In this document: positions 1-39,772 of the stretch, piece after piece | How the letters are laid out: every line of letters starts with the position of its first letter | How positions within the stretch are numbered: the stretch's first letter is position 1 | From: Octopus vulgaris | Lineage: Eukaryota | DNA: 64,000 nucleotides | Reading direction: 5' to 3' | Assembly: GCA_951406725.2 (NCBI GenBank) | Contig: OX597820.1 | Location: 14,322,001 to 14,386,000, forward strand | Notes under the pieces: generated by a model | Database searches by the model: none | Seen by the model: only the letters and a program-made list of their open reading frames with translations | Told to the model about the DNA's origin: nothing | Position numbers and translations under genes: made by a program

Positions 1-2762
1 AGCACAGGTGCTTTATGTGTGACACTAGCATGGGTGTTTTATATGTGGAACTAACATGAGTGCTTTTCATGTAGCACCAGCACAGGTGCTTTATGTGTGA
101 CACTAGCATGGGTGTTTTATATGTGGAACCAACATGAGTGCTTTTCATGTAGCACCAGCACAGGTGCTTTATGTATGGCACTAGCATGGGTGTTTTATAT
201 GTGGCACCAACATGAGTGCTTTTCATGTAGCACCAGCACAGGTGCTTTATTTGTGGAACTAGCACGGGTGCTTTATATGTGGCACCAACATGGGTGCTTT
301 TCATGTAGCACCCGCACAGGTGCTTTATGTGTGACACTAGCATGGGTGTTTTATATGTGGAACCAACATGAGTGCATTTCATGTAGCACCAACACAGGGG
401 CTTTATGTGTGACACTAGCATGGGTGTTTTATATGTGGAACCAACATGAGTGCTTTTCATGTAGCACCAGCACAGGTGCTTTATGTGTGACACTAGCATG
501 GGTGTTTTATATGTGGAACCAACATGGTTGCTTTTCATGTAGCACCAACACAGGGGCTTTATGTGTGACACTAGCATGGGTGTTTTATATGTGGAACCAA
601 CATGAGTGCTTTTCATGTAGCACCAGCACAGGTGCTTTATGTGTGACACTAGCATGGGTGTTTTATATGTGGAACCAACATGAGTGCTTTTCATGTAGCA
701 TCAGCACAGGGGCTTTATGTGTGGCACTAGCATGGGTGTTTTATATGTGGAACCAACATGAGTGCTTTTCATGTAGCACCAACACAGGGGCTTTATGTGT
801 GGCACTAGCATGGGTGTTTTATATGTGGAACCAACATGAGTGCTTTTCATGTAGCACCAGCACAGGTGCTTTATGTGTGGCACTAGCATGGGTGTTTTAT
901 ATGTGGAACCAACATGAGTGCTTTTCATGTAGCACCAGCACAGGGGCTTTATGTGTGGCACTAGCATGGGTGTTTTATATGTGGAACCAACATGAGTGCT
1001 TTTCATGTAGCACCAATACAGGGGCTTTATGTGTGACACTAGCATGGGTGTTTTATATGTGGAACCAACATGGTTGCTTTTCACGTAGCACCAACACAGG
1101 GGCTTTATGTGTGACACTAGCATGGGTGTTTTATATGTGGAACCAACATGAGTGCTTTTCATGTAGCACCAACACAGGGGCTTTATGTGTGGCACTAGCA
1201 TGGGTGTTTTATATGTGGAACCAACATGAGTGCTTTTCATGTAGCACCAGCACAGGTGCTTTATGTGTGGCACTAGCATGGGTGTTTTATATGTGGCACC
1301 AACATGGTTGCTTTTCATGTAGCACCAGCACAGGTGCTTTATGTGTGGCACTAGCATGGGTGTTTTATATGTGGCACCAACAGAGGTGCTTTTCATGTAG
1401 CACCTGCACAGATGCTTTATGTGTGGCACTAGCATGGGTGTTTTATATGTGGAACCAACATGAGTGCTTTTCATGTAGCACCAGCACAGGTGCTTTATGT
1501 GTGGAACTAGCACGGGTGCTTTATATGTGGCACAAGCATGGGTGTTTTATATGTGACACCAACAGAGGTGCTTTTCATGTAGCACCAGCACAGGTGCTTT
1601 ATGTGTGACACTAGCATGGGTGTTTTATATGTGGAACCAACATGAGTGCTTTTCATGTAGCACCAGCACAGGTGCTTTATGTGTGGCACTAGCATGGGTG
1701 TTTTATATGTGGAACCAACATGAGTGCTTTTCATGTAGCACCAGCACAGGTGCTTTATGTGTGACACTAGCATGGGTGTTTTATATGTGGAACCAACATG
1801 AGTGCTTTTCATGTAGCACCAGAACAGGTGCTTTATGTGTGGCACTAGCATGGGTGTTTTATATGTGGAACCAACATGAGTGCTTTTCATGTAGCACCAG
1901 CACAGGTGCTTTATGTGTGGCACTAGCATGGGTGCTTTACATGTGGAACCAACATGGTTGCTTTTCATGTAGCACCAGCACAGGTGCTTTATGTGTGGCA
2001 CTAGCATGGGTGTTTTATATGTGGAACCAACATGAGTGCTTTTCATGTAGCACCAGCACAGGTGCTTTATGTGTGACACTAGCATGGGTGTTTTATATGT
2101 GGAACCAACATGAGTGCTTTTCATGTAGCACCAGCACAGGTGCTTTATGTGTGACACTAGCATGGGTGTTTTATATGTGGAACCAACATGAGTGCTTTTC
2201 ATGTAGCACCAGCACAGGTGCTTTATGTGTGGCACTAGCATGGGTGTTTTTTTATGTGGAACCAACATGAGTGCTTTTCATGTAGCACCAGCACAGGTGC
2301 TTTATGTGTGGCACTAGCATGGGTGTTTTATATGTGGAACCAACATGAGTGCTTTTCATGTAGCACCAACACAGGGGCTTTATGTGTGGCACTAGCATGG
2401 GTGTTTTATATGTGGAACCAACATGAGTGCTTTTCATGTAGCACCAGCACAGGTGCTTTATTTATGAAACTAGCATGGGTGCTTTATATGTGGCACCAAC
2501 ATGAGTGCTTTTCATGTGACACCCGCACAGATACTTTATGTATGGCACTAGCATGGGTGTTTTATATGTGGAACCAACATGAGTGCTTTTCATGTAGCAC
2601 CAGCACAGGTGCTTTATGTGTGGCACTAGCATGGGTGCTTTACATGTGGCACCGGCACCAGTGCTTCATATGTGGTAACCAACATGAGTGCTTCATACAT
2701 AGCACCAGCACGAGTGTTTTATGTGTGACACCAGCACAGATTCTTTTTTACATGGCACCAAC
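1..2762. repeat. 78-bp tandem satellite built from three related 26-bp subunits (~35 copies, open at window start)
   Basis: Unit agcacaggtgctttatgtgtgRcact / agcatgggtgttttatatgtggaacc / aacatgagtgcttttcatgtagcacc. The 26-aa periodicity of ORF 97..1608 reflects the 78-nt unit. Units degenerate after ~2450. Confidence 0.97.
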
Positions 2763-4870: not shown

Positions 4871-5675
4871 CAGGGTATTTCTGTACTTATGAATGTATAC
4901 ATGGAGATTTGTATGTTTTGTTTTATGTATGTATATGTGCACTGTATCTGCATACCTGTTGACATTTTAATGCAATACTACAGATACATGTTCCATGTTT
5001 AGAGCTGTTTTCTCATAGTTTGCTTCACTCTCTTTCTTTCTTATTCCTCTTCTGATTGTTCTCCATCAACCTCTTCTCCTTTTCTAGTATTTTGTAACTT
5101 GTTATAATTTGGCTAGTTTTTGGGCCAATTTTTAAATTTTCAGATTGTTAATCATTGAAATACTAAAATCTTATTGTTTGCAATATTCAATTTGACCAAA
5201 ATTACATACCTTCTGCAGGCTGTGTACATCATAATTACATTAGAACCAGGGCCAAGAGCAGATGGCAAAGCTCAAATGGCAGCTGCATAACGTTTTAATA
5301 TTTAATTATTATTATCAATAATTTCACATTATCTCTTTCTGTCTTGCTTCACATAAATTTCTACATACAAGCAGTTATACAGACATGTCTGTGTGTATAT
5401 AAATACATATATTTATATATATATATATATTTACATGCATAAACTTTTATATGCACTGGTGTATACATTTGTGCTAGTATAGGCATGTGAACACACACAC
5501 AAACACATATATATATACACACACACATAAATATATATACATACATGAATTACTACTCTTAGGTGTAGTGATACTAATAACCTGGTGTTAAAACTTAATA
5601 TACATACATAAACTATAGAATAAAACATCAGTCAAGCACAGAAGATAATGTTCTTTTGATATTTTATTTTATTTC

Positions 5676-7075: not shown

Positions 7076-7159
7076 CAAAAGGATATGTTATAATACTACT
7101 CTACATACACAAAAACAGCCATACCAACAATCTAACATACATATATATATATATATATA

Positions 7160-10312: not shown

Positions 10313-10459
10313 ATTATTATTATATGTAGAAAAATACAAACTGGGACAAGAACGCAAAACACTTAGAAGACGATACAAAAAACACGGACAGGACATTCGA
10401 AGCCCTCAATCTTCAGTCAAGAACCGGATCATCGTAGCAATTTCGGCTGATCACTTTGA

Positions 10460-16054: not shown

Positions 16055-16085
<31 letters not shown>

Positions 16086-16139
16086 ATTTTGTACTGTCGT
16101 TACTGTCCTGTTTTTGTTACCATTTTTACCCCTCCGCAA

Positions 16140-16460
16140 AAAGATCTCAGATTTTATTTAATTCGCTTTTCGCAGAAATGGAAAGTTTCTATCAAAGATG
16201 CGTCTCGCCTTCACCTTCGAAACGCAGAGTAGATGAAACCATGGCGACTTTCTTTGTGTTATTTGTCCTGTACTCTATTTTTTCGCTGTTTAAGAAAAAT
16301 GTCCAGTTCCTTGGTTTTGTGTTTATGTTTTCATTTCTCGTTGTGTTCGACTTTTTGTTTTTGGTGTCCTGTACCCATATATGCATGTATATATACATGT
16401 AGAGGTAGGTACGTACATATATGTATGTATATATGCATATGTTTTATTTATTAATTTATT
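16140..16460 (+). mobile_element. Unclassified repeat carrying a permuted-hammerhead motif (core deleted in this copy); paralogue at 39018-39345
   Basis: Aligns by eye with 39018-39345 over ~320 bp. Confidence 0.75.
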
Positions 16461-25802: not shown

Positions 25803-26448
25803 CTTTGTTTTCTTCTTTCTTATTTGTGTATCTCCTTACTAACCGTCAGCCATTTTGTATTTCTATTGTATGTCTTCATTTGCGCATGCTTATATCTCTA
25901 TGTGCGTCTATGTTTATTTAGTGTGTGTGTGGTGGATGCCTGTATTATTTGTATCTTCTGTTTATATATGTTCATGTAATTTGTATTTTGTTTTTTTGTT
26001 TTTGTTGTTTTTGTTTATTCTTATTTTGTTCATGTGTTTACATCCACTTATTATTATCATTACATATGCTTGTATGTATGTATGTATGTATAACAACAAT
26101 ACTAGTAATAATAATAATAAATCGAATAAAAAAAAAAATATATATATATTGGCTGACTGCTAGCCCTTTTGTGTCTGACCATGGTTACTACCACATCGAT
26201 ATTCTTCCCTCTGCTGTAAGGCTTTATTTCCACACACACCAGCTGAATTCAGTTCATCCCCAGTCAAAAGATGCCTGTTTTTATGTCCTGTTATTATTAT
26301 TATTATTGTTATTTTTATTGTATTTTTGTATTTATATTCGTGTAACATCATCTGTTTTTCCGTCCATGTTTTAGTATACATTCGATGCTTTTTTCTAAGG
26401 AATCTAATGCTCTTAGCTTAGTTTTTCCTTGGGGTTGGCCAGATTGGA

Positions 26449-26514
26449 GCAATCTCAAGATTAATCAGCCGAAATTGCAAGGATGATCTGGTTCTTGACT
26501 GAAGATAAAATGCT
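26449..26514 (+). ncRNA. Non-circularly permuted hammerhead-like motif
   Basis: gcaa TC tcaaga ..agcc GAAA ttgc ...tcttga CTGAAGA. Stem III gcaa/ttgc and stem I tcaaga/tcttga; stem II is weak. Confidence 0.55.
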
Positions 26515-27208
26515 TCGAATGACCCATCCTTGTTTTTTTGTATCATCTATCTGGATGTTTTGTTGTCCCTTTTTGTATCACCTATTTGTCCAGATGTTTT
26601 GCGTTCTTTTCCCATTTTGTATAAACAAACGTATACACACACACTCGCACACATACACACACATATATACATGCACATATGCACACATATACACATGCAC
26701 ATATACACACACACACACATCACCAACTCTTGCCTGACCCACTCCTATTCTCCTTTATCTCATCCAAAGGTAAATTCTCCATTGACTGCATTCACCTCTC
26801 TACTCAAATTTCCGTCTACCAAATCCACTCACAAGGCTTTGGTCGGTCCGAGGCTATAGTTGAAGACACTTGCCCAAGGTGCCATGCAGTGGGACTGAAC
26901 TCGGAATCATGTGGTTCGTAAGCAAGTTACTTACCCCACAGCCACTCCTATGCCTATATATATGTATGTATATGTATGTGTGTGTGTGTGTGTGTGGAGG
27001 TGCAATGGCCCAATGGTTAGGGCAGCAGATTCGCAGTCGTAGGATCGTGGTTTCGATTCCCAGACCAGGTGTTGTGAGTGTTTATTGAGCGAAAACACCT
27101 AAAGCTCCACGAGGCTCCAGCAGGGGTGGGTGGTGATCCCTGCTGTACTCTTTTGTCACAACTTTCTCTTTCTTCTGTTGGCCTGTTTGCTTAGCCAGCA
27201 TGGTCATG

Positions 27209-38631: not shown

Positions 38632-38835
38632 TATATCTTCTATCTTTTCTCTTCTCAAAGAAAATATTTCTCCAGCATTCACTATTTTACCCTCATTCTG
38701 GTCTAACGACCCTCCATGCTTGTTTACATTTGGTTTCCCTGTATGTCTCCACTGTCCTGTTTTTACTCTTAACTTTGACTCTCCATAAATCCTAAATTTT
38801 ATTTTGGTAACTGTGGGAGCAACTGCCTTCAAAGA

Positions 38836-38898
38836 CTTATATTGTCATTCAGTGCTCGAAATGAGGAGCAGACTGGCAGCTGACAACTGATGAAGGGT
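38836..38898 (+). ncRNA. Non-circularly permuted hammerhead ribozyme candidate
   Basis: ctta TA ttgtca ttcagt gctc GAAA tgag ...15 nt... tgacaa CTGATGA a gggt. Stem III ctta/tgag, stem I ttgtca/tgacaa, stem II gctc/gggt. Confidence 0.7.
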
Positions 38899-39072
38899 TG
38901 TTCTTTGTGTTACTTGTCCTGTTTTCCATTTGTTTCTCTTGTTGTTGGCGTATTCAACTCATTTGTTTTTATATTTCATGTTGCTTATTCTTTGTGATGT
39001 CTTGTACTCATATATGCGTATCTCAAATTTTATTTAATTTGATTTTCGCAGGAAGGAACATTTCATTGAAGT

Positions 39073-39132
39073 CATGTATCGCCTTGACCTTCGAAACGTG
39101 GAGTAGATGAAATTAAGGCGACTGAAGAAGGG
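39073..39132 (+). ncRNA. Non-circularly permuted hammerhead ribozyme candidate
   Basis: catg TA tcgccttga ccttc GAAA cgtg ...12 nt... ttaaggcga CTGAAGA a ggg. Stem III catg/cgtg, stem I 9 bp, stem II ttc/ggg. Confidence 0.7.
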
Positions 39133-39772
39133 AATTTTCCTTGTTTTGTATGTCCTGTACTCTATTTTTTCGTTGTTTTAAAAAAATGTCCATTTCCTTG
39201 GTTTTGTGTTTATGTTTTCGTTTCTCATTGTGTTCGACGTTTTTTTGGTGTCCTATACCCATATATGCATGTATATATACATGTAGAGGTAGGTACGTGC
39301 ATATATGTATGTATATATGCATATGTTTTATTTATTTATTAATTTATCATATGATGGAACGCACGCATCCATTTCTAAGTAAGATTGTTCTACATATATA
39401 TATATGCATATATATATATTATATATATATATATATGTATATTTAATAGCAGTTTGACTCCACCCTACATTACTTAATGCTTTGTGGGTGTAGAACATGT
39501 TTCCCCCTCATCAAATGTATTAAAACACACACACACACACATATATGTGAATATATATATTAGTGTGTGTCTGTGTGTGTGTGCGTGCATAGAAGCATAT
39601 ATATATGTATGTATGTGTGCATGTGTGTATATATATATATATATATAAAAATATATATATATGTATATATATATATTATATATATATATGTATGTGTGTG
39701 TGTATATGATATATATATATATGTGTGCATATGTATATATATATATATGTATATATTATATATATATATGTA

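Follow-up and report, generated by a model that had tools for sequence, protein, structure and literature searches.

What kind of RNA is encoded by a stretch of octopus DNA in which all core elements of the hammerhead ribozyme are present, with their strands in an order that is unusual for this class? Types I, II and III are the three circular permutations of the hammerhead. The analyzed stretch, in the following called the window, comprises 64,000 nucleotides of Octopus vulgaris (contig OX597820.1, positions 14,322,001 to 14,386,000). A first-pass annotation had described motifs at 38836, 39073, 26449 and 16199 in the order III'-UH-I, II'-GAAA-III, linker, I'-CUGANGA (here named S-G-C), and all claimed pairings were indeed found in the sequence; the core words, like stems I and III, lie at the claimed places. 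Stem III has 4 bp in all four copies, while stem I has 6, 9, 6 and 5 bp, respectively. The triplets are AUA at 38836 (predicted cut 3' of 38841), GUA at 39073 (predicted cut 3' of 39078) and AUC at 26449; at 16199 the core is deleted after CU. In the copies CUGANGA, GAAA and UH are flanked by stems I, II and III, as in hammerheads, and their order is not the cyclic C-G-S order without crossing stems that characterizes types I to III.

The motifs are real and their number is far above chance. In a sample of 464 kb, consisting of the window and 40 ten-kb stretches picked regardless of the motif (four of which adjoin the window), the S-G-C order with stems I and III was matched five times, compared to 0.2 matches in shuffled sequences, and three of the five matches are in the window. 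Genome-wide counts were taken in the 2.8-Gb genome. A pattern of GAAA followed by CUGANGA about 20-27 nt later yielded 2794 matches versus 204 for the reversed-pattern control, and a second pattern of the same kind, disjoint from the first, yielded 5223 versus 409; the excess of both over the controls is about 7400, with several subfamilies left out. The suspected multicopy nature in an animal repeat was borne out, as at least four repeat families, here named A to D, account for thousands of copies. First-look searches listed 1953 candidates for family A, 1466 for B and 2022 for C, which are not copy numbers, and the family D motif had 204 genome matches versus none in the control. The non-circular order also held, because a relaxed descriptor applied to 90 similarity-chosen loci and the window gave 77 matches in SGC order versus a single one in CGS order. 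As anticipated, standard hammerhead models miss the motif: none of the best 150 of 302 Rfam matches was a hammerhead, and these 150 contained only microsatellite-driven miRNA matches.

One element of the annotation is probably wrong, namely, the placement of stem II. It had been formed with the bases after CUGANGA, which requires an extra base between A9 and G10.1 and leaves at least half of its pairs as G-U; it is missing at 26449, and a strict descriptor without an insertion after A9 recovered no copy of the motif. A better partner of 5-6 bp for the strand before GAAA is present in all four families, a Watson-Crick complement 35-45 nt upstream (GAGCA/UGCUC in A, GAAGG/CCUUC in B, GGCUG/CAGCC in C, 6 bp in D). 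All five upstream pairs are of the Watson-Crick type in 17 of 25 descriptor matches of family A, 27 of 30 of family B and 24 of 29 of family C. Directly 5' of the upstream strand lies a hairpin, H, and the strand 5' of H pairs with the bases after CUGANGA, forming a helix named P4, which spans 6-7 bp in family A, 5 bp in B and about 14 bp in C, and is weak in D. Directly 3' of the upstream strand begins helix J, which pairs with the linker before I' and corresponds to the I-II contact of Eckert et al. (2023; PMC10085705). J has 5-8 bp in the family consensus sequences, and it joins the distal stems I and II directly only with the upstream stem II. The same helices, made of different letters, recur in families A, B, C and D. 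Judged from these pairings, stem II most likely forms with the upstream strand and not with the bases after CUGANGA, and the catalytic core is probably broken between A9 and G10.1, which places it outside the six permutations of Eckert et al. (2023). The resulting split fold corresponds to type CSG with the chain opened at A9/G10.1.

The elements and ribozymes in the window are listed in Table 1. The copy at 26449 is complete under the split-fold reading, and the family B copy is truncated at about 39020 and is devoid of P4' and of the 5' arm of H. Families A and B lie back to back at 38636-39397; they end in the same 3' terminal words and, outside the ribozyme, resemble each other weakly (68-82%), and are probably related. 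The constructs that had been suggested for in vitro cleavage (38825-38905 and 39060-39140) omit the upstream stem II strand, and a false-negative cleavage test would therefore be possible. The first approximately 2700 nucleotides of the window are occupied by a 26-nt tandem array with a higher-order period of 78 nt and about 91 copies in register, and the long open frames in this region are a by-product of the array.

Table 1. Repeat elements and predicted ribozymes in the window (positions of the window; a prime marks the partner strand of a helix).
Feature	Position	Strand	Basis and details
Family A element, 5'-truncated non-coding unit	38636..39021	+	blastn to L032 unit, 85%
Family A ribozyme, complete split fold (predicted)	38777..38899	+	P4' 38777-82, hairpin H 38783-38816, stem II 5' strand 38817-21, J 38823-27, III' 38836-39, UH 38840-41, I 38842-47, II' 38853-57, GAAA 38858-61, III 38862-65, J' 38875-79, I' 38881-86, CUGAUGA 38887-93, P4 38894-99; P4 6 bp (2 G-U), H 5, II 5 (all Watson-Crick), J 5, III 4, I 6
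Family B element, directly after family A, (TA)n-rich tail at end	39020..39397	+	97% to L006 unit
Family B ribozyme (predicted)	39052..39141	+	II 39052-56 with II' 39088-92, J 39060-66 with 39107-13, III, UH 39077-78, I 9 bp, GAAA 39093, CUGAAGA 39122
Family C element	26149..26575	+	90% to L072 unit
Family C ribozyme, complete split fold (predicted)	26379..26521	+	P4' 26379-92 with P4 26507-21, H 26395-26432, II 26433-38 with II' 26465-70, J 26439-45 with 26485-91, III' 26449-52, UH 26453-54, I 26455-60, GAAA 26471, CUGAAGA 26499
Family B-related dead copy	16079..16460	+	stems I and III kept; CUGANGA and P4 strand deleted after 16249
Family C fragment, fifth copy, new beyond the first-pass annotation	10321..10451	-	starts about 9 nt 3' of predicted cut; GAAA and CUGAAGA kept
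Family D (Naiad tail), short 3' fragment downstream of ribozyme	7090..7138	-	90% over 49 nt to L156

Covariation of the stems was likewise recovered. In an alignment of 21 family C-type copies, hand-picked for diversity with degenerate ones included and not corrected for relatedness, pairing amounts to 92% for stem I, 96% for stem III, 89% for the upstream stem II and 74% for J, whereas slid controls reach 18-48%. Two-sided changes are found in 13 of 22 pairs, among them four of six in stem I, four of five in stem III and three of five in the upstream stem II. U16.1 is invariant, though no search pattern demanded it, and H17 is a G in two of the 21 copies. When stems I, II and the core were held open, P4, H, J and III were nested in most of 11 consensus and single sequences. 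Rough stacking sums, in which loops and pseudoknots are ignored, favored the split fold in all 11, in two of them by less than 1 kcal/mol. The z-scores of folding, at -1.3 to -2.1, are weak. When left to fold freely, the copies at 38836 and 39073 adopt minimum-energy structures that contain a competing upstream/downstream helix.

The host of the motif, which the annotation had left unnamed, can be identified as Penelope-like and of the Naiad type. The units have about 720-850 nt, end in (TA)n, and form partial tandems (pLTR; L006, L015, L019, L066, L072 and L185) as well as inverted, 5'-truncated arms (L005, L047, L058 and L170). This arrangement beside (TA)n matches Penelope-like elements (PLEs), and the preference for (TA)n insertion is shared with Naiads. 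A head-to-tail array of five family C ribozymes at about 723 nt spacing, resembling a retrozyme multimer, is found at G000:C1:79499394-79502323. For family D the connection extends to coding sequence. Its ribozyme lies 0.9-1.4 kb after a C-terminal reverse transcriptase (RT) remnant at Naiad-like ORF ends in four of 13 loci, and was not found within the fetched stretch in the other nine. The RT remnants match the C-terminal RT region of P0023 (E 6.5e-18), and the remnant of L224 retrieved P0032. In this protein GIY-YIG (111-162) precedes RT (724-813), as is the domain order of Naiads. The 3' ends of Naiad_Obim and Naiad_Ovul in the supplement of Craig et al. (2021; PMC8557442) show the same split fold and are matched by family D. 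On this sequence evidence, family D is identified as the 3' end of a Naiad element. No intact Naiad coding copy was seen in this genome, and short Naiad remnants found no match by Pfam or by a word-indexed protein search.

Families A to C are short and non-coding. No linked ORF was found in 90 loci, and no sequence match to family D was detected; their mobilization by Naiads is probable on the grounds of fold, target and arrangement. Two candidate coding partners were rejected. The GIY-YIG ORF of L047 lies downstream of the ribozyme, and it and its 16 homologs are all C-terminal endonucleases; the fragment itself (960-1352, minus strand) belongs to a C-terminal-endonuclease PLE and is situated in the (TA)n tail that follows a copy of family A. 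The second candidate, a family with long ORFs, is a PLE that has a C-terminal endonuclease and a type I motif. Its example in L234 (1304-4624) is a young PLE with a long open frame encoding RT followed by a C-terminal GIY-YIG, with a minimal type I hammerhead-like motif seen by eye at about 5100-5140, and dozens of similar long frames exist in the genome.

If the motif cleaves its RNA, truncated copies might record the cut. Junctions, defined as 5' ends abutting (TA)n, were collected by eye among the first 100 matches listed per search on chromosomes C1-C2. For family B, 31 distinct loci were obtained. Two of them have their junction within 20 nt upstream of the predicted cut, and 29 at the cut or beyond it, within a stretch of 11 positions. 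For family C (22 loci), three junctions lie within 18 nt before the cut, five exactly at the predicted bond and 14 after it. On the assumption of uniform truncation, the p values are 2e-11 for family B and 2e-5 for family C, and the five of 22 junctions exactly on the predicted bond give a p value of 6e-4. The upstream partial repeat of L019 also begins at the predicted site. Among 92 copies unselected for length, 53 run past the site by 95 nt or more on its upstream side, whereas the ends of 19 fall between -90 and -6 and those of 20 between -5 and +15. Given the 53 long copies, cleavage would have to be incomplete or templates re-ligated. The start of truncated copies at or just after the predicted cut suggests cleavage in vivo. 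The accumulation of junctions could in part be due to stalling of RT at helices; stalling does not, however, predict the exact bond.

Naiads are reported to target (TA)n and to be without canonical hammerheads, while some carry core words that fit no descriptor and received the remarks "HHR_core" or "HHR_half_core" (Craig et al., 2021; PMC8557442). Of the 54 consensus records in File S5 of that paper, 52 were surveyed by eye over their last 250-350 nt, together with 55 of 62, 27 of 43, 15 of 23 and 15 of 25 core-word matches. The split fold was recognized in at least ten of the 54 records, from five phyla and with unrelated letters: Naiad_Bfor, Naiad-3_Chem, Amil, Aacu, Anas, Naiad-2_Movir, Plae, EuTe, Obim and Ovul, among which the three Acropora and the two Octopus records are near-identical. 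In Naiad_Bfor stem I has only 2 bp and the partner of P4 is out of view, and in Aacu stem II contains one mismatch. A contiguous type CSG with helix J was found in at least seven nematode Naiads (one Pristionchus, Nbra-1, -2, -3, Hcon, Hpol and Asuum), and Ptep, Smim and Esco have the S-G-C order with an ambiguous stem II. No hammerhead was recognized by eye at the 3' ends of the other 34 records. Bivalve and hemichordate Naiads end in conserved, GC-rich structured motifs of two types (by eye) that are not hammerheads. It is somewhat favored, on these surveyed ends, that many Naiads carry active non-circular hammerheads, type CSG in nematodes and a split, seventh topology elsewhere, and that the cut sets the 5' end of the template, recorded as truncation junctions. 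With the same modest preference, we read the split topology as occurring in ctenophore, cnidarian, acanthocephalan, crustacean and cephalopod elements, where a two-helix domain that carries the RNA ends would interrupt the core at A9/G10.1.

Taken together, we consider it fairly likely that the motifs are monomeric self-cleaving hammerheads in the terminal repeats of Naiad-type PLEs and of short non-coding elements probably mobilized by them. Their strand order would be P4'-hairpin H-II-J-III'-UH-I-II'-GAAA-III-J'-I'-CUGANGA-P4. Stems I, II and III would cross as in types SGC and CSG, with the backbone opened between A9 and G10.1. P4 would close this break, with H sitting between P4' and G10.1 and P4 possibly stacked on H, and helix J would link the far ends of stems I and II in place of the usual loop-loop contact. 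Transcripts that are tandem or read-through would be cut 3' of H17. With priming a few hundred nucleotides further downstream, reverse transcription would often run off at the cut end and leave copies starting at the site or shortly after it, beside those from uncut or re-ligated templates.

That the RNA instead adopts a contiguous type SGC as first annotated, with stem II made from the bases after CUGANGA behind an insert of 1-5 nt, whether as the sole active fold or in alternation with the split fold in a two-state switch, seems unlikely to us. This fold belongs to a type that has already been validated (PMC10085705), and PLE hammerheads typically have such an extra base between positions 9 and 10.1 (PMC4209133). 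The downstream stem II is present in the consensus of A, B, C and D; together with an upstream/downstream helix, which could splint a contiguous SGC, it is also possible in A, B and C, in the copy at 38836 this combination even scores better than the split fold (-19.5 versus -17.7), and for the truncated copy at 39073 the contiguous fold is the only fully closed option. One downstream pair covaries as well (AU in 12 copies, GC in five). Yet half of the downstream pairs are G-U in A, B and D, and the bases concerned pair with P4' in every family. Within 1-2 nt of CUGANGA, the pairing of a downstream strand is possible, if weak, in A and B, and an insert of 4-5 nt is required in C and D. In the alignment the downstream stem II is paired to 73%, with two-sided change in one of four pairs, and G10.1-C11.1 is found in 10 of 21 copies with the downstream versus 20 of 21 with the upstream stem (Fisher p 0.001, with copies that are not independent). 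In the subfamily L167/L170/L171 the downstream stem II is lost, whereas all five upstream pairs are kept. Outside the cephalopods, a downstream stem II is impossible in five types of Naiad surveyed by eye (Plae, EuTe, Chem-3, Movir-2 and Acropora).

Two further readings were considered. The motif might be a conserved RNA structure of the retroelement that is derived from a hammerhead and has lost catalysis, serving for instance as an RT stop or a protein-binding signal. Among tested hammerheads, we know of none that carries two helices between A9 and G10.1, RT stalling could explain the truncations, and many copies run through the predicted site. We nevertheless hold this reading to be improbable, since five phyla have retained CUGANGA, GAAA, U16.1, G10.1-C11.1 and H17 despite changes in the stems, and the exact-bond junctions of family C point in the same direction. 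A strand-swapped dimer or multimer, formed only between tandem copies so that the knotted monomer never arises, has precedents in minimal PLE hammerheads, which work as dimers (PMC4209133), and tandem copies 720-850 nt apart exist. It is very improbable nonetheless: stem III, at 4-9 bp, is a full helix instead of a palindromic stub, a single unit suffices to close J, H and P4, and a swap between two copies would still result in a non-circular order.

With respect to novelty, the annotation was right about the non-circular order, which is, however, already described: it is the type SGC of Eckert et al. (2023; PMC10085705), which has been shown to cleave and depends on a helix that bridges stems I and II on their far sides. 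In the accessible part of that study, SGC comprises 583 sequences from metatranscriptomes and CSG two sequences from metagenomes, none of its RNAs except one GCS candidate comes from a named organism, and CUGANGA is assumed to be at most 1-2 nt away from its stems. The SGC order is thus known, and we found type SGC reported from no named organism's genome in the accessible sources; the motif is a new variant of the hammerhead class. A search of the open-access literature, with subscription journals outside the scope, turned up no description of animal genomes or Naiads that carry non-circular hammerheads, and none of a hammerhead interrupted by a helix between A9 and G10.1. The accessible part of a 2026 preprint on animal retrozymes does not mention non-circular hammerheads. 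Variants with additional helices are cited in the accessible part of PMC13725137, and that of Forgia (2023; PMC10162972) contains no extra-helix hammerhead. A split or knotted order would explain the report that Naiads lack the hammerheads of other PLEs, and would challenge the premise of the six permutations, according to which an interruption of the CUGANGA block is impossible. The truncation junctions offer genomic evidence on the role of PLE ribozymes in transposition, which Craig et al. (2021; PMC8557442) called unclear.

The elements themselves resemble Naiads (Craig et al., 2021; PMC8557442) in their (TA)n targets, partial tandems, inverted truncated arms and C-terminal RT, while families A to C differ from the published Naiads in being short and non-coding. 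Known PLE hammerheads, which commonly have an extra base between positions 9 and 10.1 (PMC4209133), likewise reside in terminal repeats, tolerate an insertion at 9/10.1 and have been proposed to cut precursor RNA. In contrast to the motif described here, they have the circular order C-G-S and a stub stem III, and depend on dimers. The PK hammerhead (PMC11300833) is also pseudoknotted and has an extra helix, IV; however, its stem II is short and the loop of that stem makes the pseudoknot, G10.1 follows immediately after A9, and its connectivity is pistol-like and not SGC. The closest relatives are type SGC (HRIMA-1) and type CSG, with the S, G and C blocks in the same reversed cyclic order, a full core, a short I-to-II' linker and an extra helix joining the other sides of I and II (there named I, here J). 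Block C is assumed to be unbroken in the types of Eckert et al. (2023; PMC10085705), whereas here it is apparently split by P4 and a hairpin, and the RNA ends lie in P4. With at least seven contiguous CSG hammerheads in nematode Naiads versus two metagenome sequences before, and with thousands of chromosomal copies in an octopus instead of environmental RNAs, non-circular permutations move from rare environmental RNAs to the chromosomes of animals.
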